DNA from: an uncultured Candidatus Saccharibacteria bacterium
GTDB lineage: Bacteria > Patescibacteriota > Minisyncoccia > 2-02-FULL-40-12 > GWA2-44-9
Direction of reading: 5' to 3'
DNA: 64,000 bases
Assembly: GCA_964513645.1 (NCBI GenBank)
Contig: CAZENF010000001.1
Span: forward strand, 135,303 to 199,302
Shown: positions 2,053-20,619 of the stretch, piece after piece
Layout: each line of letters begins with the position of its first letter
How positions within the stretch are numbered: position 1 is the first letter of the stretch
Position numbers and translations under genes: made by a program
Notes under the pieces: generated by a model
What the model was told of the DNA's origin: nothing
Seen by the model: only the letters and a program-made list of their open reading frames with translations
Databases searched by the model: none

Positions 2053-3129
2053 TCAGGCCTTCCTGGCAACGTTGAATACTATGCCCATCCCGGCGAGAAG
2101 CACCATCATCGCAGTTCCACCATAACTGACGAAAGGCAGTGGAACTCCGGTCAAAGGGGCAAGACCGGAAACCGCCGCAATATTTAGAAAGGCTTGGCCC
2201 AGTATCCAGGTCGCCATACCCATCACCAAAAGTTTGCCGAACTTGTCCTTGAGACTGTTGGCGGTATAACCCATCATCAGTCCGAACAGAACAAATAACC
2301 CTATCAATCCAGCCGCTCCGATGAAACCAAGTTCTTCCACTACCACCGCAAAAATAGAATCGTGGATAACCTCGGGCAAAAAGCCGAATTTTTGAGTGCT
2401 CTTTCCGTAACCGACCCCAAACATCCCGCCCGAACCTATCGCGATCATCGACTGGTTGAGCTGATAAGAAATCCCTTTCGGATCCAAGGACGGATCAAGA
2501 TATGTTTTAATCCGGTTCAGCCGATAAGGTTCGACGGTTATTATCAGAACAAAAATTCCCAATATCACCGCACCGATAAGAAAAAGGTGTTTCAAATTAG
2601 AACCAGCAAAAAAATAAATAGAGATTGAGATCAGGGTTACAACGATCAGAGTGCCAATGTCCGGTTGAAGAGCCAGAACACCGGCAACAAAGATAAGCAG
2701 AACAAAGAACGGCGCCATACCGAAAGCCCAGTTTTTTGTTCTTTCATCGCGGTTACTGAACCAGGCGGCCAGATATACTATCAAAGCCAATTTGAGAGCT
2801 TCCGAGGGTTGAAAAGAAAAACCGGCGATGCTAAGCCAGCGAGTTGCACCTTTAAGACCCTGGCCCAAATGAGGAGCAAAAACAGCCAGAAGCATAAAAA
2901 GCGCACCTAAGAGTATCAAAAAAGATATTTTTTTCAAAAATTTGTAATCTATCTTCCGGAAAATGAACATTAAAATAAGCCCCGGCAAAACACCTAAGAG
3001 AAGCTGCCGGTTTAAATAATAGTATGGGGAACCAAAATTTTTCTGGCCCTCAACAAGTCCGGCAGACGACAAAACAACCAACCCAAAGATCAGCAGTATC
3101 ATCGTCATTCCAAAAAGCACTTTGGACAT
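2053..3129 (-). CDS. SEDS-family cell-division / peptidoglycan polymerase (FtsW/RodA)
   Basis: Polytopic membrane protein with the C-terminal motif GGTAMMVLLAGMGIVFNV typical of FtsW/RodA. It sits in a region with mraY and ddl. Confidence 0.85.
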   Translation of the reverse strand: MSKVLFGMTMILLIFGLVVLSSAGLVEGQKNFGSPYYYLNRQLLLGVLPGLILMFIFRKIDYKFLKKISFLILLGALFMLLAVFAPHLGQGLKGATRWLSIAGFSFQPSEALKLALIVYLAAWFSNRDERTKNWAFGMAPFFVLLIFVAGVLALQPDIGTLIVVTLISISIYFFAGSNLKHLFLIGAVILGIFVLIITVEPYRLNRIKTYLDPSLDPKGISYQLNQSMIAIGSGGMFGVGYGKSTQKFGFLPEVIHDSIFAVVVEELGFIGAAGLIGLFVLFGLMMGYTANSLKDKFGKLLVMGMATWILGQAFLNIAAVSGLAPLTGVPLPFVSYGGTAMMVLLAGMGIVFNVARKA

Positions 3130-3171
3130 TACTTAATTTTATTACATTCTGCTTGTATTTCCAAACAAAAC

Positions 3172-3201
3172 TTGACATATCTGGATAAAATTATGTATAA
3201 T
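3172..3201 (+). promoter_or_regulatory. Sigma70-type promoter for the ABC transporter gene
   Basis: TTGACA at 3172-3177, an 18-nt spacer, and TGtTATAAT at 3194-3201. Confidence 0.5.
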
Positions 3202-3217
3202 CTATAATCTTTGTTCG

Positions 3218-5083
3218 TTGACAATGGGGGCTAAGTTAGTGGAAAACAGCCAAGAATCTGCTAAAAAGAACATCTCGACCAATATGAAGCGGGTAGTCCC
3301 CTATCTGTCCGAATATAAATTCAAGATAACCATAATCATTCTCGGCTCACTGTTGTTTGCCCTTATTCGTCTGATAGACCCATACATTTACCGGATAGTA
3401 ATGGATGATGTCCTGGTTAAGGCCTATACGGGCAACCTGTCATTAGGTCCCGCCATCCGAACCGTAGCCATCGCCTGTTCCGTGATATTTTTTCTGCGCA
3501 TAGTCACCAGTTCTGTTTTTGGATTTTACTCCTATCTAAGTCTCGAGGTCGGCAATCGCATCGAAATGAAGATGTTCAGAGATGCCTTGGCCCATCTTCA
3601 ATCGCTTGATATGAGTTTTCACCATAACCAGAATTCGGGCGAGGTTCTGGCTAAAGTTGAGCGAGGTATCGGCGGACTTCAAAGGGTCATGCACGATAAC
3701 CTGTCCAAATTTTTTCTACCAGGTACGATAAACGTAACCTGTCTGTTGGTCTGGATATTTTACCAGAACTGGAAAATGGCCGTTGCGGCGACATTCTTCA
3801 TTCCCTTCCATATCTATTTCTCTTTGGGAAAAGCGAAGCCGATATACGAAGAGCAGTCAAAGATAAACAAGGCCGAAGAAAAAATATATCACCGGGCCTA
3901 TGAAGGAATTTATAACGTCGAAGCGGTAGTTTCTTTCAACGCTTCGCGGCACGAATTAAGTCTTTTTGATAAAGAGAGGATACCGGCCTTTTATTCTCAG
4001 CTCCGGATCGCCAAGTGGTGGCGGCTTTTGGGTTTTTCGGCTTCTTTTTTTGAAGTTCTCGGACGAACGGCGATAATAATCGTCGGAACCTACTTGACCA
4101 TTCAAAAGAAGGCCACGCCAGGCGAAATTCTGATGTTCCTCGCCTATATCACAATGCTTTATCAGCCGCTTCTCGACATGATCACCACTTACTTGAGCAT
4201 GCAGCAGGACCTTTCGAAAGTGCACCGGTTTTTCGATCTCTTGGACACAAAACCAAAAGTCACCGAGATATCTAATCCGATAGATATGTCTCCACTTAGG
4301 CATTCGATCGAATTGAAAAATGTTTCTTTCGGTTACGAGGATTCAACTGGCGTGATCAAAGACATGAATTTAGTCATCCCGGCGGGTAAAAAAATTGCCG
4401 TTGTAGGCAAGACCGGTGCGGGCAAATCGACTTTAGCAAGTTTGATCCAGAGGTTTTACGATCCCGAGGCCGGAATCATAACCGCTGACGGGAATGATCT
4501 CAGGAACATCGGACTTGAATCCTTAAGAAGACAGATAACAACCGTTCCCCAGCATGCCTTATTGTTCTCAAGGACGATAAAAGAAAATATCGCATATGGC
4601 TGTGATGAGCCGGACGATAATAAAATAATCGAAGCGGCACGGATTGCGAACGCACATGAATTCATCGACTCTAAGCCCGAAAAATACGACACGGTTATCG
4701 GCGAAAAAGGTGTGAAATTGTCCGGCGGTGAACAGCAGAGAATATCCATCGCCCGGGCGGTTTTTTCCAACGCCTCGCTTATCATTATGGACGAAGCGAC
4801 TTCGCATCTCGATACTGATTCAGAAGCAGTGGTCCAGGAAGCTCTTTGGAAATTAATGGAAGGCAAGACTGCGATAATCATCGCCCACCGCCTTTCTACA
4901 ATTCTAAGAGCAGATTCGATAGTGGTAATGGATAAAGGACGTATAATCGACCGTGGCACTAGCCAGGAACTTCTTGAAAGATGTCTGTTGTACAGAAGAC
5001 TTTATAACCGGCAATTCGAACTGGAAGATGATGATCTTGGTAATGAAAACAAGGTTGTAAATATTAAACGGCCGTCGAACTGA
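3218..5083 (+). CDS. ABC transporter permease/ATPase fusion (MsbA-like exporter)
   Basis: N-terminal 6-TM domain. Walker A GKTGAGKST, ABC signature LSGGEQQRISIARA, Walker B IIMDEATS. Start may be TTG at 3218 or ATG at 3224. Confidence 0.85.
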   Translation: MTMGAKLVENSQESAKKNISTNMKRVVPYLSEYKFKITIIILGSLLFALIRLIDPYIYRIVMDDVLVKAYTGNLSLGPAIRTVAIACSVIFFLRIVTSSVFGFYSYLSLEVGNRIEMKMFRDALAHLQSLDMSFHHNQNSGEVLAKVERGIGGLQRVMHDNLSKFFLPGTINVTCLLVWIFYQNWKMAVAATFFIPFHIYFSLGKAKPIYEEQSKINKAEEKIYHRAYEGIYNVEAVVSFNASRHELSLFDKERIPAFYSQLRIAKWWRLLGFSASFFEVLGRTAIIIVGTYLTIQKKATPGEILMFLAYITMLYQPLLDMITTYLSMQQDLSKVHRFFDLLDTKPKVTEISNPIDMSPLRHSIELKNVSFGYEDSTGVIKDMNLVIPAGKKIAVVGKTGAGKSTLASLIQRFYDPEAGIITADGNDLRNIGLESLRRQITTVPQHALLFSRTIKENIAYGCDEPDDNKIIEAARIANAHEFIDSKPEKYDTVIGEKGVKLSGGEQQRISIARAVFSNASLIIMDEATSHLDTDSEAVVQEALWKLMEGKTAIIIAHRLSTILRADSIVVMDKGRIIDRGTSQELLERCLLYRRLYNRQFELEDDDLGNENKVVNIKRPSN

Positions 5084-5116: not shown

Positions 5117-6175
5117 TTACAAAAGGGGCGGTATTTTTGAGTCCACCAGAAATATTATCAGGCCGATTATCGCTCCAATGGCGCTTATCATCCAAAAACG
5201 CATTGTAACCTGGGTCTCCGGCCAACCTAACGCTTCGAAATGATGGTGGATCGGGGTCGATAAAAATATTTTTTTGCCGCGGAACTTCTTAGATATAAGC
5301 TGAATGATCACGGAGAGGGATTCGATCATCGGAATTATCGCTATTACCGGTAGCAAAAGACCGGTATCCGTCAGGAGAGAAACGACCCCGACGGTAAAAC
5401 CAAGAGCCATTACGCCCGTATCCCCCATGAAAAATCTGGCCGGATAAATATTGAACCACAGAAAACCTACCAGAGCTCCGATTATCGCCGTCAGAAAAAC
5501 CGCCAGATCCATTCTGCCTTGGTCAAAAGCTATTGCCGTCAGAGCTCCGAAAATAACGAGAAAAACACCGCCGGAAAGACCATCCAGACCGTCGGTCTCG
5601 TTCATTGAGAATGCCGTCGCCACCGAAATAAAAATAAAATAAATAATATAGAACCAGCCAACGGTAACATCTCCCAGGAACGGGATATTTATCGCGTTAC
5701 GGCCAAGCTTGAAATAGAACCACCAGGCGCCGATGGCCGCAACCGCAATATAAAGCATGAGCCGGCGACTTATTCTCAATCCGCCCCGTTTAAAGATCCC
5801 GAGAACATCATCAAGCATTCCGACCAGACCGGCAAAGATCAGAATACCCAAGGGCAGAAAGGTCTGGCTTCTTGATAAAAAATTGACCCGTGACCAGAAA
5901 CCATCAATAGTGTTTGAGAGTATAAAAAAGAAAATTGTCAGACAGCTGACAGTGACCCATATTGGCAGACCGCCCATGGTCGGCGTGCCTTCTTTTTTCT
6001 TGTGAAGCTGATTGAAAACCGGGGCATTAGATTTTTCTATCTCTTTTCCGGGTTTAAAATGTTTATCAAGTATTTTTGTCCAGAAAGAAGTAATTATCAA
6101 GTTAATAAAAAAAGCCAGCGTCCCGACTATGAATACTCTGACAATATTAAATATCGTAAAGATTTGATTCTGCAT
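5117..6175 (-). CDS. mraY: Phospho-N-acetylmuramoyl-pentapeptide transferase
   Basis: Motifs MLDDV, FMGDTGVMALG and PIHHHFEALGW are diagnostic of MraY (glycosyltransferase family 4). Confidence 0.85.
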   Translation of the reverse strand: MQNQIFTIFNIVRVFIVGTLAFFINLIITSFWTKILDKHFKPGKEIEKSNAPVFNQLHKKKEGTPTMGGLPIWVTVSCLTIFFFILSNTIDGFWSRVNFLSRSQTFLPLGILIFAGLVGMLDDVLGIFKRGGLRISRRLMLYIAVAAIGAWWFYFKLGRNAINIPFLGDVTVGWFYIIYFIFISVATAFSMNETDGLDGLSGGVFLVIFGALTAIAFDQGRMDLAVFLTAIIGALVGFLWFNIYPARFFMGDTGVMALGFTVGVVSLLTDTGLLLPVIAIIPMIESLSVIIQLISKKFRGKKIFLSTPIHHHFEALGWPETQVTMRFWMISAIGAIIGLIIFLVDSKIPPLL

Positions 6176-11814: not shown

Positions 11815-11887
11815 CCGCCCATAGCTCAGTTGGTAGAGCAGCTCCCTTTTAAGGAGATGGTCGTAGGTTCGACTCCTACTGGGCGGA
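11815..11887 (+). tRNA. tRNA-Lys (anticodon UUU), no encoded CCA
   Basis: 73-nt cloverleaf: acceptor CCGCCCA/TGGGCGG, D-arm GCTC-AGTTGGTA-GAGC, anticodon loop CTTTTAA, T-arm GTAGG-TTCGACT-CCTAC. Confidence 0.9.
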
Positions 11888-13342
11888 CAAGATTGAAAAG
11901 TCAGCATTTTTAGGAGTGTTGGCTATTCTAAAAAATGGTTTTTTATATTGTATTTCCTGAATTTCTTTATTTTCGAACTGGATGTTCCAAAGTACGGAAT
12001 TTAGTATTTGATACCTTTCTGAATCTTCTCCAAATAAAAAGTCATTTTTAGCATTTTTGGCTTGTAAAAATACTTCTTTTGTTTGTTCCAAAGTAGTTAG
12101 GGCAGAATTAATATTACCCTTCTTGATATGGCCTAGTTGGGCTTCTAATTCAACTCTTTGATTATTTAGTTCGAGCATTTTCTCATCATAGAGGTCTTTT
12201 CTAATTGTTCCGGAAGCAAAACCATCAGTCAGTCGTGATTCTTTCTCCTTGATCGAATTTAGCTCATTCTGAACGTTTTTAGATAGTACCTCGACTCGGT
12301 TATTACTCAAACCAATCTTCTGTTTAGCGGCCTCATACATAATTTCGATTGCCTCATCATCAAAAGCCAAATCACCAAGCTTGTCAGCAATCAATCTGGC
12401 TATATATTCTTCTCGCATATATGATTTTCCCTGTTCGCAATTGCCTTTGCCATTAGTACAGTAATAATATCTGTGTCCTCGTTTTAGGGAAGCTGTAAGC
12501 ATACAACCACACTCTTTACATCTCATCGAACCTCTCAACGGAAAGAACAATGTTTTTTGTTTTGGCCTGGAAGCCTGATTAATAACCTCTTGGCACCGAT
12601 CGAATAATTCTTTTGAAACAATAGGTTCAAATTTACCTAAATATTCCTCTCCATTCTTGGCCATAATTCCATAATAAATTTTATTATTTATATGCCGATG
12701 AATACTTCCTAAGAACATCTTGCCTCCAGATTTAGTTCTTAAACCTTCCTCGTAGAGCATATCTGAAATATCCTCAAAACTTTTAGTTCCAGAGGCATAT
12801 AACTCAAATATTCTTTTCACCCAATGGGATTTATCATTCGGGAATAATTGTTTAGTAGACGAATCACGAGAATATCCAAAAGGAACTTGAAACGGCCACC
12901 TGCCCTGTCGCAAACTTTCACGATTACCCCTTTTTACATTTTCAGCCAAATCACGGCTATACTGATTAGCCATACCGAAATGAACTAAAATCATTAACAC
13001 GTTGTCTTTTGGAAGATGAATTCCCTGATAGGTTCTAATTTCTTTAATAATATTTTTCTGAAGAAGATCTATTATTTGGCCGCCGTCAATTAAGTTTCTT
13101 GCCAACCTGTCCTCTTTCCAGCAAAGAATAGCATCTGCTTTTCCGCTAGTAATCATTTTTATCATTTGGGCAAATATTGGCCGCCCGAGAGATTTAGCTG
13201 ACTGGCTTTCTTCAAATATTTTAATAACTTTTAAATTATCCCTTATTGCGATTTCAAGAAGCTCTGTTTTTTGAGCATCCAAAGACATGACTTGTCTGTC
13301 TTCCGATTCAGTAGATTTTCGGCAATAAATTATATATCTCAT
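11876..13342 (-). CDS. Large serine recombinase (integrase)
   Basis: N-terminal resolvase catalytic domain (YCRKSTESEDRQVMSLDAQ), recombinase domain, a zinc ribbon (CKECGC…YYYCTNGKGNC) and a coiled coil. The 3' end overlaps the tRNA-Lys 3' end. Confidence 0.9.
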   Translation of the reverse strand: MRYIIYCRKSTESEDRQVMSLDAQKTELLEIAIRDNLKVIKIFEESQSAKSLGRPIFAQMIKMITSGKADAILCWKEDRLARNLIDGGQIIDLLQKNIIKEIRTYQGIHLPKDNVLMILVHFGMANQYSRDLAENVKRGNRESLRQGRWPFQVPFGYSRDSSTKQLFPNDKSHWVKRIFELYASGTKSFEDISDMLYEEGLRTKSGGKMFLGSIHRHINNKIYYGIMAKNGEEYLGKFEPIVSKELFDRCQEVINQASRPKQKTLFFPLRGSMRCKECGCMLTASLKRGHRYYYCTNGKGNCEQGKSYMREEYIARLIADKLGDLAFDDEAIEIMYEAAKQKIGLSNNRVEVLSKNVQNELNSIKEKESRLTDGFASGTIRKDLYDEKMLELNNQRVELEAQLGHIKKGNINSALTTLEQTKEVFLQAKNAKNDFLFGEDSERYQILNSVLWNIQFENKEIQEIQYKKPFFRIANTPKNADFSILSAQ

Positions 13343-14070
13343 TTTTCTTCGTAAGTTTTTCTGTTTATAATCCCCACAAATTCATTCATACCATGCCATT
13401 CATAGATAGGCTTTCTTTTAGCATACTTTTCAGCAATTCTTTTTGCAACCTTTTTTCTCATAACTATTTCTTTTGGAAAGCCATGGGATATCCTAAGAAG
13501 CCTCATAGCATTAAACATTACTTGTTCTCCACCCTTGGTGATATATCCGGTGATATAAGTTGCCAGCTTTCCAGAACCGTCAGTTTTTCTCGCATCCACA
13601 TATCCTTCTCCCCAGAGATTCGCAAGAACTCGGGTACTTCGCTCCTCTCCATAGGAAATAATCCGTCTACCAACGCACGTATCTCCGAGAGACAATGGCA
13701 CGTTAAAAATAAGGCCATGGAAGTGTATACGTCCCCTTGGCGATAATTCCGGGACGAAAAGTGAATATGGTTTGCCATATTTAGTTCGCAACCGCATTTG
13801 GAAAATGCGTAAGGAATCATTTGCAAAAGAGGCATCTGATGCATCTCCAGCAAAGGTGAGCGTGACCAAAATCGGACATCCAAATTCTTTAAGAGCAGCA
13901 TGCACGCGCCGCATACATATTTTTCTTGTCCTCCAAATATTATCGGGTCGCCTAACGCCGTATATGGTACGCTTCTTTCTGCGACGACGTACGCATATTT
14001 TGGGCGGGGCTTTTTCGAACGTTGTGACTTCAATAATTTTTCCATATTTTTTAACAATATTAATCATCAT
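13339..14070 (-). CDS. Rolling-circle replication initiator (HUH endonuclease, two-Tyr type)
   Basis: Motif I ILVTLTF, motif II HFHGLIF (HUH), motif III YITGYITK. Its stop overlaps the recombinase start. Confidence 0.75.
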   Translation of the reverse strand: MMINIVKKYGKIIEVTTFEKAPPKICVRRRRKKRTIYGVRRPDNIWRTRKICMRRVHAALKEFGCPILVTLTFAGDASDASFANDSLRIFQMRLRTKYGKPYSLFVPELSPRGRIHFHGLIFNVPLSLGDTCVGRRIISYGEERSTRVLANLWGEGYVDARKTDGSGKLATYITGYITKGGEQVMFNAMRLLRISHGFPKEIVMRKKVAKRIAEKYAKRKPIYEWHGMNEFVGIINRKTYEEK

Positions 14071-14293
14071 TTTTGCAATTGTGAGGGTATATCAAGTCTT
14101 GGGGATTGGACGTCTCGTCGGGCGCTTCGCGCACCCCGCCGAGACTATCCGAACCTACCCCAGCAATTGCCAAATAAAAATCAGCAAACGAATCCAAATA
14201 TTCCTCGGCCTCTGCAGGAGTTAAAATATCGCCGTATCTATCGGCAAAATACTTTTGAATCCGTTGAATTAAATTAAGACTAAATTTGCTCAT
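14060..14293 (-). CDS. Hypothetical small acidic protein
   Basis: 77-aa ORF upstream of Rep with no recognisable motif. Confidence 0.3.
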   Translation of the reverse strand: MSKFSLNLIQRIQKYFADRYGDILTPAEAEEYLDSFADFYLAIAGVGSDSLGGVREAPDETSNPQDLIYPHNCKNDD

Positions 14294-14410
14294 ATACTCA
14301 GTTTCGCAATTGCCAAAAACAACTTTTAGATAACTTCAGAACGAATAAAAAATAAAAAAGACCCAGTAAAAAGGGCCTTTCGAGAAGCGGCTATAAACAA
14401 TAGCTAAAAG

Positions 14411-15289
14411 TTATTCCATATTGTCCAAGGAATATTCATAGATTTTATTCAGAGAGTATCCGCTGGTATCATGCCGGATAATTAAATCCTCCGTAAGCTT
14501 TAACTTCTGACGGAACGCCTTGTTGGTTCGGCTTATTTCCTGCATGATTATTCCCGGTCTTTGCTTGGTTAATTCTTCAAGCTTAGAAAGCTTTGCTAAT
14601 TCCCGAGATAAATTCTTTATGATGACAAACCTCTTTGAGCCACGACGAATTGGGTAATTAAGTTTCTTGTTTTTTACTACTCTATAAATACCCAGCGAAT
14701 CATCTATAAAAATTTTAATCTTTTCTTGAGATTCTGCTTTTTCTGGTTCATCCGTTATTTTCTCGACTTCCGGTATAAATTGAATATGGAACTTTCTTAG
14801 CTCATTTTTGTAATAACTTCTTTCTCCTTCGTAAGCCTTGGCATAGGATTTTAATCCCTCCTTAGACCATTTGAAATAATTTTTAGGATTCTTATGATAA
14901 CCGCGCCTAAGAACATTCTTTAATCCTTTAAGCATAATTAAAGCAACCGGATCTTGGTCTTCATCAAATTCATCAGTAGTCATATAATCCTCAAGGGGGA
15001 AATATATTTTAATGTAGAGAGTTAAATAATGGGCGGTATATAAATTATATCGCTCGAGCTTAGATATCTGCTCTGATCTTAATCTTGCGTTTGCATCCTC
15101 GGTTTTAGAATCCAAAATTTTAATATTAGTTTTACGATATTGTTTTTCTGTGTCATTAATAATCTTGGCTAGGGCAGGAGTTTTAACTATAAAATCAATG
15201 TATTTATGTACATTTTCATAAAATTCGGAATCAGAATTGCTCTGAAGCGCAGCATCATATCTGATTTTAAGCCCACCCATTAAATCCAT
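14411..15289 (-). CDS. Hypothetical protein (island cargo)
   Basis: 292 aa, charged and helical, with no recognisable motif. Confidence 0.45.
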   Translation of the reverse strand: MDLMGGLKIRYDAALQSNSDSEFYENVHKYIDFIVKTPALAKIINDTEKQYRKTNIKILDSKTEDANARLRSEQISKLERYNLYTAHYLTLYIKIYFPLEDYMTTDEFDEDQDPVALIMLKGLKNVLRRGYHKNPKNYFKWSKEGLKSYAKAYEGERSYYKNELRKFHIQFIPEVEKITDEPEKAESQEKIKIFIDDSLGIYRVVKNKKLNYPIRRGSKRFVIIKNLSRELAKLSKLEELTKQRPGIIMQEISRTNKAFRQKLKLTEDLIIRHDTSGYSLNKIYEYSLDNME

Positions 15290-15349
15290 GCACAGGATAC
15301 TAACATATAAATTAGATTTTTTTAATACTGGTGCTATACTAATTTTGCA

Positions 15350-16156
15350 ATGAAACCATACTATGATAAAAATAATTTCAAACTATATCAGGCAAACTGC
15401 CTAGATCTACTATCCGAGCTCCCAGAAAATTCCGTTGATATGATCTTTGCCGATCCACCCTACAATCTCTCTAATGGCGGTTTTTCCGTTCATGCCGGCC
15501 GAATGGTCAGTGTTAACAAGGGCGATTGGGATAAAAGCAAAGGATTTAAAGATGATTATAATTTTCACTATAGCTGGATGGAGGCTTGTAGAAGGGTTTT
15601 AAAGCCACATGGTACACTCTGGGTTAGCGGAACATATCATTCAATATATCAGTGTGGACATGCTCTCCAAGCCCTTAATTATCACATCCTAAACGATATT
15701 GCCTGGTTTAAGCCAAACGCTTCACCCAATTTAAGCTGCCGATTCTTTACCGCAAGCCACGAAACATTAATCTGGGCTAGAAAAGAAAAGAAGGCAAAGC
15801 ATATCTTTAATTATGATTTAATGAAAAACGGCGAATGGCCGGAAGATAAATTAAAAAAGCCAGGCCTACAAATGAGATCTGTATGGTCAATGGGAACTCC
15901 AAAACCGATTGAAAAAAGATTCGGAAAACACCCTACACAAAAACCGGAAGATCTGTTAAAAAGAATAGTATTAGCCAGTACAAAGAGGGGGGATCTTGTA
16001 GTTGATCCTTTCACTGGAAGCTCAACAACGGGGCTTGCATCATATCTACTCGGCAGGAAATTTATAGGCGTTGATACCGAAAAAAAATATCTGGACTTGT
16101 CTATAAAAAGATTCGAAGAGTTAGATAAAAATTTAAAAAATAAGTCTAACAAATAA
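15350..16156 (+). CDS. DNA methyltransferase (N6-adenine/N4-cytosine, beta-class)
   Basis: Motif IV IFADPPYNL precedes motif I VDPFTGSSTTG, which is the beta-class order. Confidence 0.85.
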   Translation: MKPYYDKNNFKLYQANCLDLLSELPENSVDMIFADPPYNLSNGGFSVHAGRMVSVNKGDWDKSKGFKDDYNFHYSWMEACRRVLKPHGTLWVSGTYHSIYQCGHALQALNYHILNDIAWFKPNASPNLSCRFFTASHETLIWARKEKKAKHIFNYDLMKNGEWPEDKLKKPGLQMRSVWSMGTPKPIEKRFGKHPTQKPEDLLKRIVLASTKRGDLVVDPFTGSSTTGLASYLLGRKFIGVDTEKKYLDLSIKRFEELDKNLKNKSNK

Positions 16157-16157
16157 T

Positions 16158-16682
16158 ATGAAAAAATTTGGAATTGGAGGAGCAAATACAAAAACAGGGC
16201 TAGTCTTTGAGGGCAAAGTTGATTTTTTAACCTTTATCGCTAAGCAAAAAAATTACTCTGTTAAAGGTGCGAATATTTTTTATAACAGTGATGAAGTTGC
16301 CATGTCGTTTAAAAAATATGGCCTTTATAAGTACTTAGAAAGCAAAGGGATTGATTATAAAAAATTCATATCAAAAAGACTTCTTCCGGATGATGCTATC
16401 TATGTAATAGCCAACAATCATTTTTATATACTTGAGATTAAATTTCAGGAAGTCGGCGGATCCGTTGATGAAAAACTCCAAACCTGTGATTTCAAAATTA
16501 AACAATATAAAAAACTACTCTATAGTTTAAATGTTGAAGTTGAATTTATTTATATTTTAAGCGAATGGTTTCAGAAGCCGGAATATAAAGACGTTCTTGA
16601 TTATATAATTTCTATTCCGGGCTGTTCTTTCTACTTTAATTACTTGCCTCTCCAAAAAATAGGCCTTCCCATACCAGAATAA
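16158..16682 (+). CDS. Putative type II restriction endonuclease partner of the methyltransferase
   Basis: Starts 1 nt after the MTase stop. Possible PD-(D/E)xK core (PDDAIYVIANNHFYILEIKFQ). The assignment is by context. Confidence 0.45.
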   Translation: MKKFGIGGANTKTGLVFEGKVDFLTFIAKQKNYSVKGANIFYNSDEVAMSFKKYGLYKYLESKGIDYKKFISKRLLPDDAIYVIANNHFYILEIKFQEVGGSVDEKLQTCDFKIKQYKKLLYSLNVEVEFIYILSEWFQKPEYKDVLDYIISIPGCSFYFNYLPLQKIGLPIPE

Positions 16683-16826
16683 ACGCGTTTTTGGCTCGCC
16701 AAAAATTATACCACGCGGGGACCCCTACTTCGTCACCCCGCGTGGTGGCGAGCCTTGCGAGCCAAGGGAAAACGCTTCACAAATCGACTAAATTCTGATA
16801 TATTCGCCGTGTTTAATAAATAAGTC

Positions 16827-17258
16827 ATGATCTCATACGAAGAACTTAAGAAGATATCCAGAACTCGTATTGCCGAAGCGCAAATTCTTTTTGATAACGA
16901 AAAATTTGATGGGTCAATCTATTTATGTGGCCATGCGATCGAGATAGCTTTAAAGGCCATAATATGTAAAAATTTAAGAGGGTCTACTCAAAGTTTTGGT
17001 CATATACCAAGCACCATATCTGAATTCAAAACTGTAGCCGAAATGAAAACTCATAAATTAGATGAGCTTCTAGCCGCAACAGGACTACAAGTTGAAATCA
17101 CATCAAAACCAGCAAGATGGACTGCTTGGAGCACGCTATTAAAATGGAATCCTGAAATCAGATACTCGCCGATTAAGGGGAGGCTCATGAAAACTAGCGC
17201 TGAAGAAGTTATTAATTCTGCTAATAAATTGTTACATTTTTTCTGGCGTCAAGTCTAA
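16827..17258 (+). CDS. HEPN domain protein
   Basis: Helical protein with a HEPN-like pattern (GSIYLCGHAIEIALKAI … THKLDELL … EIRYS). Confidence 0.55.
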   Translation: MISYEELKKISRTRIAEAQILFDNEKFDGSIYLCGHAIEIALKAIICKNLRGSTQSFGHIPSTISEFKTVAEMKTHKLDELLAATGLQVEITSKPARWTAWSTLLKWNPEIRYSPIKGRLMKTSAEEVINSANKLLHFFWRQV

Positions 17259-17269
17259 ATAGAATAACA

Positions 17270-17635
17270 ATGGAAGATATTATAAAAAAATTAAATAAGG
17301 TCCTAGAATCAATTCTTAAAGAAAGAGATGTTGTTTTGTTTGCTGTTATTAAAAGAGAAGATGCCGAATTGTGGGATATAGTCATTTCAGGTAATCAACT
17401 TGATAATCAAGAAAACTTGAGGTGGATAATAGGCCTGATAAATAACGTCTTAGAAAAGAATGAGATGACAGCATTCTCTCGCTTGTTATTATTAAATACT
17501 GACGAGGATTTTGTAAAAAATCTAACAAAAACTTTTGGATTTACAACTAAAGACGGTCGTATGGAACTGAAAAACGTAAGAATTAATAATATATTTATTA
17601 AGCACGCATATTTACTCAGGAGTAGGACAAAATAA
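17270..17635 (+). CDS. Hypothetical protein, possibly a degenerate minimal-nucleotidyltransferase-like partner of the HEPN protein
   Basis: VVLFAVIKREDAELWDIVI resembles the MNT core (FGSxARG…DiD) but with the catalytic residues replaced. Confidence 0.3.
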   Translation: MEDIIKKLNKVLESILKERDVVLFAVIKREDAELWDIVISGNQLDNQENLRWIIGLINNVLEKNEMTAFSRLLLLNTDEDFVKNLTKTFGFTTKDGRMELKNVRINNIFIKHAYLLRSRTK

Positions 17636-17639
17636 ATTT

Positions 17640-18413
17640 ATGTTCAATGATAACATACAGTATAAAAAGAAGGTGATAAGAAGAGTCTTGGCTTATTTTA
17701 GCGGTGGTAACACTGGGGTTGGTTCAGGATTTTTTGTAAATAAGAATGGAATATTTTTAACGTGTTTTCATGTTGCATTTGGGGGAGAACTTAAAAATCT
17801 AAGAAATGATCCAGATTTTATTGCCATTAAAGAATCCGATGAACATAAAAAATTAGAGACTTGGTATTCTAATAAAATTAATAAAATAGAAGTTGAACTG
17901 CCCGATTCATCCAAAGAAGAATTAAAATTAGTTAGCTTTGATGAAAAATATGATATTGCAGTCTTAAAACTGGAAAATAAAGAAAAAATTAGAGATATAG
18001 ACAACATAAAATTTGATTTTAAAAAACAGCTTAAACAGGGTGACCATGTTTTCTTTGGAGGATTCCCGATAAGCTATCCATATAAAGCAGAAGAGTCGCC
18101 TTTTGCAATAAACACAGGGATGGTTTCTAGTTTCCCTAACACTATTATCGGAGGAGACTTCTATGAACATGCCCAGATAAATTCAGTAAATTTAGGAGGA
18201 AATAGTGGTGCTCCATTATTTATAAAAAATAAAAATAAAGTCATAGGAATTATTAATGGGAATATGAATTGGGGTAGTGATTTTGTGGTATTTAAAAATA
18301 AATCTGGCAAAGAAGAGGTGGGGCCTCTGAGAGTTCCCTTAAGTATAGCCTACGCAACACCCGTAAGCTTACTTAAAAAAGAAAGTAAGGTTTTTAAATC
18401 AGCTATAAGCTAA
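17640..18413 (+). CDS. Trypsin-like serine protease (S1 family)
   Basis: His motif LTCFHVA. Ser motif GGNSGAPLF. Confidence 0.75.
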   Translation: MFNDNIQYKKKVIRRVLAYFSGGNTGVGSGFFVNKNGIFLTCFHVAFGGELKNLRNDPDFIAIKESDEHKKLETWYSNKINKIEVELPDSSKEELKLVSFDEKYDIAVLKLENKEKIRDIDNIKFDFKKQLKQGDHVFFGGFPISYPYKAEESPFAINTGMVSSFPNTIIGGDFYEHAQINSVNLGGNSGAPLFIKNKNKVIGIINGNMNWGSDFVVFKNKSGKEEVGPLRVPLSIAYATPVSLLKKESKVFKSAIS

Positions 18414-18724
18414 ATAGCACTGTTCCAACATCCTCCCACAGGGCGGACCACATCGGATTGAAGGCGCTGAAACGCGCCTTCCGTCCTTATGAAATCAGCA
18501 TTACTTGCGGTTCGAACTCTGAGCAAATGGGCGAGCTCGTGAGGCAGTTCGGAATATCTATGCGGCCTTCTTTTCGTGTTCTTTTGCCAGATGCAAAAGG
18601 GCCAAAAGCTTACGAATCTCAGTCATTATCGTGTTCGAATTTTCTCTGACGTGGCGGACCTAGGCTTAAGTTTCCAGATGATGGGCGTCGCAAAATGCCC
18701 ACTCAAGTATCCTTATAAATAGGC

Positions 18725-19023: not shown

Positions 19024-20619
19024 TTAAAATCTAGACCATGAACTACCCTGGGGCCTTCCCTGTCCCTGGCTAGTTGGCGGTGGAGCTGGCCTTGACGGCG
19101 GCGGTTGATTATTCTTATTTCCATTATTAGCGGATCCTCCTTGGGAAGAATTAGGAAGATTCTGTTTGTTCGCAGGCCCTATATATTGTCTATTATCATT
19201 TGTTGGACCAATACGTTCATTCTTATTACTTTGTGTAGTATTAGATCCATTTGTTATATCTTTAGCAGAATTATCTTGATTTTTATAGCCATCATAATAC
19301 TCAGTCACACCGACTACACCTAATATGCCAGCAGCAACTACTTTAGCCCAATTTGGAATATTTGGCTTCATGTTTTTTATCATATCCCCTGGATCTTGAG
19401 CCTGTGGCTGCCCTTGAGCACTGGTAGGTATCTGCGGCTGAACCCACCTCATCTCAGAAATATTCTGAACTATGGCATTTGCAGCATAGTAAAGTGCGGC
19501 AGCTCCTGCTATTGCATACGGAGCCCACATTGGTAGTGTCGCCGCTTCAAGAACAACTTGATTTCCCGTAGGATCTGTATTTTTGACCGGGTTATTCCTG
19601 GCATACGCATATGAATTTAGTTGCTGTGGATCGGCTAGTTGCTCTCTTTGATTCTGTCCTGTAAGCGCTCTGAATCTATTGTTGTCCCCAATCGCCAAGA
19701 AGCTTGGATCCTGACTCATAAACCTTCCCCATTTGCCACTTTGATAGCGTGCATTCGCATAGTTCAGTGATGTCGTCTGGTCAAATTCATATCCGGTGAA
19801 TTTTCGTTGTTCGTTAATGTGTGAGCCGTTACTGTTTTGGTCGAGTCTTACCTCTCCATACGGATAGTAATCAGTCAGTTCAATCTGCTTGTCTGAGGAG
19901 TTGGTAATTATTGAGCTTCCGGTCAAATTATCTGTATGAACATAGCTAACACTTGCTGTGCTCCCCGTCCCGATAACATCAGCAACCAATGTCCCACCTG
20001 GAGTAAATATATGCTTGTATCTTGTAGTGCCGTCGTAGTTGTAGAACTTAGTGGGATAGTAAGTAGTATTAGTAGCCGTCTTGACCTTAACTCTTTGACC
20101 GGTATAGTCATAAGCATAAGATGAAGAAGCTCCATTGCCGGTTACCTTACTTACTCGATTGTTATAATCCCAGGTATAGGAGGTGGAAGGTACGGATGAG
20201 AACTTATAGAAGGTGCTGGGAGAGGATTGGTTGTTGTATTCGGTTTTGACCCAGGCAGAAGAGGCGGTAACATTCTCAATTCTTGTCTCGTCCAATATAC
20301 CATTGGTATAGCCTATATTATCTCCTCTTTGACCGATGTAAACACCAGTAGAATTTCCGGTGAATAGACCTATGCCAGGAGTGCGGTCAGCGGCGCTTAG
20401 GTCAGTACCATCAACATACATCTTATAGGTAGTGCCGTCGAAGGTAGCAGTGACTAGATGCCATCCAAAAGCTATATCTCCGCTTGAATTAACATTAACA
20501 GCTGTGCCAGCAGCAGCAGCATTGGCCAGATAATAAAGTCTTTGGGTAAAGGCGGTATTGGCACCTAGAATCAACATCACTTGCGGTTCGAACTTTTTTG
20601 TATTTATTGACGACCCCAA
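19024..20619 (-). CDS. RHS repeat-associated core domain protein (short/orphan form) with a C-terminal polymorphic domain and a Q/N/P-rich tail
   Basis: LamG-like N-terminus and YD repeats (YDYTGQRVKV, YYPYGEVR). RHS core end RYQSGKWGRFMSQDP … NPVKNTDPTGNQ. Two hydrophobic segments and a low-complexity tail follow. Confidence 0.8.
   Translation of the reverse strand: MGSSINTKKFEPQVMLILGANTAFTQRLYYLANAAAAGTAVNVNSSGDIAFGWHLVTATFDGTTYKMYVDGTDLSAADRTPGIGLFTGNSTGVYIGQRGDNIGYTNGILDETRIENVTASSAWVKTEYNNQSSPSTFYKFSSVPSTSYTWDYNNRVSKVTGNGASSSYAYDYTGQRVKVKTATNTTYYPTKFYNYDGTTRYKHIFTPGGTLVADVIGTGSTASVSYVHTDNLTGSSIITNSSDKQIELTDYYPYGEVRLDQNSNGSHINEQRKFTGYEFDQTTSLNYANARYQSGKWGRFMSQDPSFLAIGDNNRFRALTGQNQREQLADPQQLNSYAYARNNPVKNTDPTGNQVVLEAATLPMWAPYAIAGAAALYYAANAIVQNISEMRWVQPQIPTSAQGQPQAQDPGDMIKNMKPNIPNWAKVVAAGILGVVGVTEYYDGYKNQDNSAKDITNGSNTTQSNKNERIGPTNDNRQYIGPANKQNLPNSSQGGSANNGNKNNQPPPSRPAPPPTSQGQGRPQGSSWSRF

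Follow-up and report, generated by a model that had tools for sequence, protein, structure and literature searches.

Here we present a widespread and uncharacterised two-gene module, a HEPN toxin-antitoxin-like pair with a non-canonical partner, found among three adjacent genes at positions 16827-18413 of a 64,000-nucleotide stretch of DNA from an uncultured Candidatus Saccharibacteria bacterium (contig CAZENF010000001.1, the whole stretch being referred to below as the window). The HEPN gene and the gene behind it form a conserved, translationally coupled unit across bacteria and some archaea, and the serine protease gene that follows them is an unrelated neighbour. We consider it probable that the locus holds two independent neighbours: a HEPN-partner pair that resembles toxin-antitoxin (TA) or abortive-infection modules, and a standalone protease distributed across the Candidate Phyla Radiation (CPR), both carried on an island of about 6.6 kb at a tRNA-Lys gene. 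A first-pass annotation of this DNA had described the three genes as co-directional and tightly spaced, which the exact coordinates bear out (gaps of 11 and 4 nt, all on the + strand), and had gone on to treat them as a single module, a proposal it tied to their co-occurrence elsewhere. The neighbourhood survey that it called for returned no conserved co-occurrence of the three genes elsewhere, and the idea of one three-gene module is lost with it. The three genes are as follows.

16827..17258, + strand: ORF1, AF0298-like HEPN-T protein of 143 amino acids (aa), predicted RNase and toxin, first gene of the pair (from PF05168, fold and conserved residues)
17270..17635, + strand: ORF2, partner protein of 121 aa, from an unannotated alpha/beta family, predicted antitoxin, second gene of the pair (from its position after the HEPN gene and the family profile)
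17640..18413, + strand: ORF3, standalone cytoplasmic S1/Trypsin_2 serine protease of 257 aa, outside the conserved pair (from PF13365)

The case for a pair comes from a survey of one genome per GTDB species (185,579 species genomes), in which 255 loci of the HEPN family were confirmed and 80 were retrieved. The partner gene lies directly 3' of the HEPN gene in 79 of these 80 loci, the eightieth ending at a contig edge, and the HEPN gene comes first in all 79 pairs. The inverted order remarked on in the first-pass annotation is the order of all these pairs, HEPN before partner being the reverse of the canonical order in which a minimal nucleotidyltransferase (MNT) gene precedes the HEPN gene. 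The 80 loci come from Patescibacteria, Acidobacteriota, Planctomycetota, Desulfobacterota, Armatimonadota, Proteobacteria, Nitrospirota, Chlorobi and other bacteria (more than 10 phyla), and from two archaea. The same arrangement is found in four independent CPR metagenome contexts, all of which have a 122-aa homologue of ORF2 (38-59% identity) directly after the HEPN gene. The third gene differs in each of the four (a second HEPN of 220 aa; a 72-aa ORF and then a C39-like peptidase; a 123-aa ORF; a 105-aa ORF), these third genes are mutually unrelated, and the protease is none of them. The second HEPN stands at the closest metagenomic relative of the window's pair (L001:5816-6478), where it is an unrelated PF05168 protein (E=1.2e-6) that gives the locus a HEPN-partner-HEPN order.

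Looked at from either side, the pair and the protease do not keep company. No member of the protease family lies within 4 kb of the HEPN gene at any of the 80 genome loci, and the protease was likewise missing from all 9 CPR metagenome loci and all 36 viral loci of the HEPN gene. The reverse search, for the HEPN-partner pair at protease loci, gave 0 of 8 loci from an exact look-up (5 distinct contexts) and 0 of 36 loci that a metagenome scan brought up (for 25 of these the contig reaches 1 kb or more upstream). The sole other copy of the triad comes from a second assembly of the same organism. Around the pair no third gene is recurrent, the largest cluster of neighbours consisting of four loci of related genomes (leuS, holA); with no recurrent third gene and with varied neighbours, the pair thus behaves like an independent cassette of two genes that has landed in many contexts. 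One such context is the leuS-lptE-holA cluster of Desulfobaccales/Desulfobacterales metagenome-assembled genomes (L024, L026, L036, L050 and L059), where the pair sits between lptE and holA; for a putative toxin module, a housekeeping cluster of this kind is an unusual setting.

Within the pair the two genes are bound closely to each other. The start codon of the partner overlaps the stop codon of the HEPN gene by 4 bp in 67 of the 79 pairs (ATGA in 58, GTGA in 7 and TTGA in 2), which is the classic signature of translational coupling; the CPR copies have gaps of 1-32 nt rather than an overlap. The HEPN protein is basic, with a median pI of 9.6, and the partner is mildly acidic, with a median of 5.9. 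Mean pairwise identity is 0.53 for the HEPN protein versus 0.35 for the partner, in which pairwise values go down to about 12%, and the two identity matrices correlate (r=0.68; in a Mantel test 0 of 999 permutations reach this value), therefore the HEPN and partner genes travel together. The pair has, in sum, the generic features of type II-like TA genes, being two small, adjacent and co-oriented genes that are co-inherited and coupled (79/80, 67/79, r=0.68). The traits that lead us to a TA-like reading are the basic HEPN protein beside an acidic partner, the stronger conservation of the HEPN protein, a patchy distribution that crosses phyla, and the occurrence of the pair in viruses and prophages.

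The viral side of the family extends it considerably. On IMG/VR viral contigs, an overlapping ORF of about 133 aa follows 35 of 36 more distant HEPN relatives (26-33% identity), and these ORFs are distant homologues of the partner (hhalign probability 94%, E=1.4e-7, 107 columns). The HEPN signature E39/K43/H76/W101/W107/R112/Y113 is invariant in this prophage branch. Of 5,426 complete Escherichia coli genomes, 190 carry the branch with an identity of at least 99%, O26 and O103 strains included. There the two genes, represented by WP_001038620.1 and WP_000520500.1 (L173:7001-7797; NZ_AP018808.1 622372-623168), bear the annotation 'HEPN domain-containing protein | hypothetical protein', and their place is the nin region of a lambdoid prophage, with the replication genes on one side and ninE/rusA/Q on the other. 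The nin region of lambdoid prophages commonly carries accessory genes. These E. coli prophage copies offer an experimentally tractable model for the whole family.

ORF1 matches the Pfam HEPN profile PF05168, as the profile search proposed in the first-pass annotation was meant to establish, with 36.1 bits (gathering cutoff 22; E=8e-9; profile positions 1-113 of 117). Its AlphaFold2 (AF2) model is all-helical (pLDDT 82.7), and the top six Foldseek matches are all HEPN structures (1wol, 1ufb, 4nqf, 2hsb, 1o3u and 2q00; prob 1.00, TM 0.54-0.70). A HEPN-fold protein is accordingly what the annotation had said it was, with the RNase role predicted. Across 80 homologues E39 and K43 are conserved in 100%, H76 in 99%, and R112 and Y113 in 97% each. 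The canonical Rx4-6H motif is missing: R112 is followed by Y-S-P-I-K-G, and in the family alignment, prophage branch included, positions +4 to +6 after R112 are I/K/G, with His or Asp in no member. A HEPN survey (Anantharaman et al. 2013, PMC3710099) describes AF0298-like HEPN-T proteins in which the Arg is retained and the motif His is lost, proposes for them an alternative RNase site made of a second conserved His N-terminal to the motif and an acidic residue in helix 2, and reports that HEPN-T genes are frequently clustered with restriction-modification (R-M) operons. Through E39, H76 and R112, ORF1 fits this subgroup. We infer an RNase activity for ORF1, since the assignment rests on the published prediction for AF0298-like HEPN-T proteins.

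The second gene belongs to a family that current annotation passes over. ORF2 has no match in Pfam, NCBIfam or PADLOC and an insignificant one in PHROG (E=0.026), and a sequence search of the PDB returned nothing. A profile search of 1.84 billion representative proteins collected 391 clusters (at 50% identity) at E<=1e-3, 55 of them at E<=1e-10. Members are mostly 120-135 aa long and, where any name is given, are publicly annotated as 'hypothetical protein'; among 73 sampled members no relevant Pfam or PADLOC family was matched. The conserved core, in the homologues from the 80 loci, comprises W35 (100%), D36 (99%), F24 (95%) and R29 (91%), the family consensus reads LFAL..RED....WD.V, and the AF2 model of ORF2 (pLDDT 88, pTM 0.83) has the topology a1-b1-b2-a2-b3-a3-b4-b5. 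One partner homologue (L028:4390-4974) carries a C-terminal DUF2188 domain (E=1.8e-23), the sole recognisable domain fusion found in the family; an apparent fusion to UDP-GlcNAc 2-epimerase at another locus (L062) is probably a read-through ORF call.

The third gene was correctly named from the start: ORF3 is an S1 serine protease with intact His and Ser, to which the Asp of a full triad can be added. It matches Trypsin_2 (PF13365) with 64.3 bits (cutoff 27.6; E=2.7e-17), and the His-Asp-Ser triad is conserved across 106 homologues (H44 in 95%, D105 in 100%, S189 in 99%). Its sequence has no signal peptide, transmembrane segment, hydrophobic N-terminus or PDZ domain; with neither a hydrophobic N-terminus nor a PDZ domain, it is therefore a small cytoplasmic S1 protease. 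Its homologues, 107 in number, are mostly from CPR bacteria, and the genes around them are varied: GIY-YIG proteins, DNA methyltransferases, GmrSD/HNH, terminase, CsgG, an Ea47-like protein and deaminases. This suggests that the protease family has its home in variable regions associated with defence or with phages. Individual protease loci show how mixed the company can be. On one CPR contig (L015/L099) two paralogous protease copies (2952-3719 and 5148-5933) are separated by about 1.4 kb and have an Ea47-like protein and a MafB19-like deaminase at their flanks. Further homologues stand beside an EcoRI-type methylase and GmrSD/HNH (L012) or beside a methyltransferase and a terminase (L010).

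How the pair might work can be pictured by analogy with known HEPN systems. The HEPN protein, as a dimer, would be a metal-independent RNase, the toxin, that uses the alternative site E39/H76/R112. The partner, made by coupled translation with the HEPN protein, would bind it directly and keep the RNase inactive, and loss or inactivation of the partner, by loss of the element or by phage infection, would then release the RNase. Since the partner has neither the G-S nor the DxD catalytic residues, it could not AMPylate the toxin as MntA does. The closest functional analogues would be the toxin-first HEPN systems RnlA-RnlB and AbiV.

Where such a partner might have come from is a question that refines the pair reading rather than competing with it. 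The first-pass annotation had seen in the core of ORF2 a minimal nucleotidyltransferase with its catalytic residues replaced. The second half of that description stands, in that G-S and DxD are absent. The resemblance to an MNT was not confirmed; what weak evidence there is points the way the annotation had read it, down to the register of the alignment, and the search with profile PF01909 that had been proposed for this protein gave no match, either in ORF2 or in the 73 family members. An hhalign comparison of the partner with a 9-member MNT profile scored 20.5 (P=0.0068, probability 5.6%, 40 columns) and set LFaL..Reds..WDlV against lFGSv.R.ea..SDvDlLV, which places D36 on the second Asp of DxD. 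Unrelated control profiles scored 13.5-13.7 (P=0.18 and 0.30), so that the MNT comparison is better than its controls and far short of a homology call. Against a single true MNT the probability was 0.2%, and the partner of the prophage branch compared with MNT gave nothing. Foldseek found no match to the ORF2 model at E<=1e-3 and every TM was below 0.5; its weak list includes several nucleotidyltransferases, namely AAD(9) (6sxj; prob 0.98, TMq 0.45), the MNT antitoxins 7ae9_F and 7ae2_B, and 2rff, and it holds MafI2, MamM-CTD and BolA as well. A partner that is a catalytically dead, highly diverged MNT, in a degenerate type VII HEPN-MNT module that has gone back to neutralisation by binding, would account for these structural matches and for the hhalign P value, and the canonical genomic partner of HEPN proteins is indeed an MNT. 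Set against the absence of PF01909 throughout the family, the lack of a PDB sequence match, TM values all under 0.5, and the single-MNT and prophage-branch comparisons, we regard it as possible, with the balance tilting somewhat away from it. Doubtful, and clearly more so, is the broadest version of the idea, in which the pair is a previously unrecognised TA or phage-exclusion family (at least 255 species of bacteria and archaea, CPR islands, and the lambdoid nin regions of Shiga toxin-producing E. coli, STEC) whose pseudo-nucleotidyltransferase antitoxin neutralises by binding.

Several observations weigh against a TA-like pair with an independent protease next to it. The window's own partner is basic, with a pI of 8.9. 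The 121 nearest neighbours of the pair hit 104 Pfam families, mostly housekeeping ones; defence genes are not enriched among them, nor are proteases, MNTs or R-M genes. ORF1 has no canonical Rx4-6H, and for AF0298-like HEPN-T proteins RNase activity has only been predicted. The partner, unlike most type II antitoxins, has no recognisable DNA-binding domain. Finally, the protease gene starts 4 nt past the stop codon of the partner with no terminator between them, so co-transcription is probable here, and a lineage-specific functional link between the protease and the pair in this island could be argued for; we think such a link highly improbable.

The observations on neighbours and motif lend themselves to another explanation, in which the pair is not a toxin system at all and the HEPN protein binds RNA or nucleotides without catalysis, as one subunit of a heteromer with the partner that has some regulatory or housekeeping role. 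The housekeeping genes nearest the pair (holA, lptE and larA, for example) and the missing Rx4-6H motif would suit it, as would the view, expressed in PMC3710099, that some HEPN domains may work non-catalytically. Against it, the 255 confirmed loci among 185,579 species genomes make a sparse and patchy distribution that is typical of accessory genes; the pair occurs on an integrative island, on viral contigs and in an accessory-gene region of prophages; and a strictly conserved polar E/K/H/R/Y constellation is not needed for a purely structural role. We judge this explanation unlikely.

A far less likely one brings the three genes back together as one three-component defence or TA system of HEPN protein, degenerate MNT and protease, in which, for instance, the protease degrades the partner and so frees the HEPN RNase. 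The layout of the three genes invites it: they are 11 and 4 nt apart, one promoter-like site precedes them and no terminator separates them. In PADLOC the ORF3 domain resembles the protease domains of defence proteins (RT-Protease_XI with E=3e-14, PDC-M35A and LmuA), and a related HEPN is encoded by the first gene of PDC-M28, a candidate cassette of three genes in PADLOC. Another protease lineage also stands next to a HEPN gene: in one CPR lineage (L115:4772-5338, L116:4772-5338 and L131:4771-5343) a protease homologue is followed by a different PF05168 HEPN of 188-190 aa, which is weakly similar to the 220-aa HEPN of L001. Together with the window this makes two independent protease/HEPN adjacencies in roughly 30 contexts, which may be chance co-location in variable regions. 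The surveys tell the other way, with the protease at none of the 80, 9 and 36 HEPN loci and the pair at no protease locus, a lone second triad that belongs to the same organism, and third genes that are mutually unrelated; moreover, neither partner nor protease matches any PDC-M28 model. The weakest alternative, an AbiV-like type III arrangement in which the downstream gene acts as an antitoxic RNA and not through its protein, borrows from the Lactococcus AbiV HEPN RNase, which is neutralised by the transcript of the small downstream gene abiV2 (bioRxiv 10.1101/2024.05.05.592566) and which PMC3710099 ties to HEPN-T through the shared alternative His, and it is the most improbable of all given that the partner is conserved as a protein over 391 clusters, with invariant residues and an AF2 pLDDT of 88, and that the AbiV profiles stay below cutoff for ORF1 (PF18728 with 13.7 vs 27.1 bits, TIGR04498 with 15.9 vs 27).

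On the reading that we favour, two independent neighbours, a TA-like pair and a standalone protease, share a mobile element; its remaining features, and one just outside it, are these.

11815..11888, + strand: tRNA-Lys(UUU), integration site and left end of the island (ARAGORN; Rfam tRNA 70.5 bits)
11876..13342, - strand: large serine recombinase (integrase), with Resolvase, Recombinase and Zn_ribbon_recom domains
13339..14070, - strand: rolling-circle replication initiator of the ORF2/G2P type (PF23343 E=3.2e-10; phrog_3419 E=2.3e-8)
15350..16156, + strand: N6/N4 (CcrM-like) type II DNA methyltransferase (PF01555 E=6.5e-57; PADLOC MTase_II E=2.3e-99)
16158..16682, + strand: putative cognate restriction endonuclease of 174 aa, starting 1 nt past the methyltransferase stop
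16691..16765, no strand: nested GC-rich inverted repeat (hairpin) in the interval between the R-M pair and the HEPN gene (folding energy)
16776..16804, + strand: promoter-like site TTCACA-17-TATATT with TG extension (consensus scan, 10/12 matches)
18432..18448, + strand: degenerate copy of the tRNA-Lys 3' end (CCTCCCACAGGGCGGAC), probable right end of the island (alignment with 11872-11888)
18455..18486, no strand: inverted repeat with 13-nt arms, 85% complementary, and a 6-nt loop, just beyond the protease stop codon and the island end

The first-pass annotation had placed the three genes as cargo of an island beside an R-M pair, and the element is now delimited, in a bacterium that the names of its closest protein homologues place in CPR/Patescibacteria, as about 6.6 kb at tRNA-Lys (11815-18448). 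The 3' end of the recombinase gene overlaps the 3' end of the tRNA, and at the far end the copy of the tRNA 3' end shares an identical core, GGGCGGAC, with 11872-11888; this end repeat is short and imperfect, and the right boundary is approximate. GC content is 0.31-0.40 within the island versus about 0.40-0.46 outside, with values of 0.31-0.36 on the inner side of the right end. An integrase that adjoins a tRNA, a tRNA repeat at the far end and an atypical composition are what a tRNA-integrated island shows, and from the tRNA-Lys, the recombinase, the end repeat and the GC shift it follows that the three genes are distal cargo of an integrative element. With a serine integrase and a rolling-circle replication (Rep) protein in a CPR bacterium, it resembles an integrated plasmid or single-stranded DNA element. 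Between the Rep gene and the R-M pair lie ORFs of 77 aa and 292 aa, both without matches; the latter (14411-15289, - strand) gave nothing in Pfam, NCBIfam or PADLOC and an insignificant match in PHROG, and it is rich in lysine and glutamate. The best domain match of the 174-aa ORF is a sub-threshold PD-(D/E)XK (PF20472, E=0.0085), and it is called a putative restriction endonuclease because of its position beside the methyltransferase.

The strong GC hairpin that had been noticed between the R-M pair and the three genes is real by folding energy (dG -46.9 kcal/mol, z -4.74; none of 200 shuffles equally stable). Its arms are 16710-16720/16736-16746 and 16693-16701/16746-16754. It occurs once only in the window, a search of Rfam gave no match to it, and, having no T-run, it was not called as an intrinsic terminator. 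The promoter-like site lies 3' of this hairpin and 23 nt 5' of the HEPN start codon; it is a consensus match in an AT-rich region, where such matches are common. Beyond the island on its right side, two directly repeated copies of 26 nt (92% identity) occur, one at 18493-18518, just past the island end, and the other at 20569-20594, in the 5' end of a 531-aa LamG/RHS-repeat gene (19024-20619, minus strand); they may be what is left of a 5' gene fragment that was duplicated or displaced.

In prokaryotic conflict systems HEPN RNases serve as central effectors, examples being Cas13, Csm6, RnlA, HepT, AbiV and ApeA. For the PF05168/HEPN-T branch with its alternative active site we know of no demonstrated biochemistry. 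With one HEPN-T clade invariably tied to an unannotated partner family of its own, there is now a concrete two-gene system to test. If the partner is a dead MNT, the pair would show an enzymatic antitoxin turning into a binding antitoxin, and a pseudo-nucleotidyltransferase antitoxin would form an evolutionary bridge from the type VII (enzymatic) to the type II (stoichiometric) neutralisation of HEPN toxins. For annotation, the partner family with its 391 clusters could receive a name, and tools that search for TA and defence systems could take up the pair. The protease carries a caution of its own, namely that tight adjacency on an island is not evidence of a multi-gene system.

In the literature searched we found no description of the HEPN-T/partner pair, and the known systems nearest to it each share some of its features. 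PDC-M28 is an untested three-gene candidate cassette (Payne et al., bioRxiv 10.1101/2024.01.29.577857) found embedded in R-M, BREX or DISARM loci. Its first gene encodes a HEPN of about 138 aa that matches the ORF1 family over nearly the full length (E about 1e-7; the copy in the window has E=3.4e-4), and with scores of about 30 bits the two are to be seen as sister families, not as one. The cassette needs components A, B and C, of which only the A model matches here, B and C giving nothing for the partner (77 members), the protease or the neighbours. The protease, for its part, has the Trypsin_2 fold and the His-Asp-Ser triad in common with HtrA/DegP-type S1C proteases and with the protease domains of defence proteins (PDC-M35A, LmuA, RT-protease), and differs from them in having no PDZ domain, signal peptide, fused effector or sensor domain, or conserved partner gene.

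Among two-gene HEPN systems, AbiV of Lactococcus (abiV1/abiV2) is alike in having a HEPN RNase gene followed by a small restraining downstream gene, a role in phage defence and a weak profile similarity; it differs in that its models stay below cutoff for ORF1 and its antitoxin is reportedly RNA, as opposed to the conserved folded protein here. RnlA-RnlB and LsoA-LsoB also place the toxin first, as a HEPN RNase with a downstream antitoxin protein that binds it, and serve in phage defence (PMC8266594). RnlA, however, is large and multidomain, and no sequence or profile similarity to either component of our pair was detected. HepT-MntA, of type VII, likewise has genes for a small HEPN protein and a small alpha/beta partner next to each other; they are co-transcribed, mobile and patchy in distribution, and the partner described here may be distantly MNT-derived. 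The order is reversed, the MNT gene coming first in 6 plasmid pairs with an annotated DUF86/HepT gene downstream and the HEPN gene first in 79 of 79 pairs here; the HepT-MntA toxin is a DUF86/HepT protein with RX4HXY, whereas the HEPN here is a PF05168/HEPN-T protein without that motif; and the MntA partner carries hG[GS] and DxD (PF01909), whereas the partner here has no G-S, DxD or NTP_transf_2 signal. In the passages covered of the HEPN survey (PMC3710099), HEPN-T proteins are standalone or are fused to or associated with MNT, and a dedicated, translationally coupled non-MNT partner family is not described. ORF1 itself is close to the AF0298-like HEPN-T proteins (2hsb) of that survey: the fold is the same (TM 0.62-0.70 to 2hsb), an Arg without the motif His goes with an alternative N-terminal His and an acidic residue in helix 2, and clustering with R-M operons is common to that survey and to this locus.

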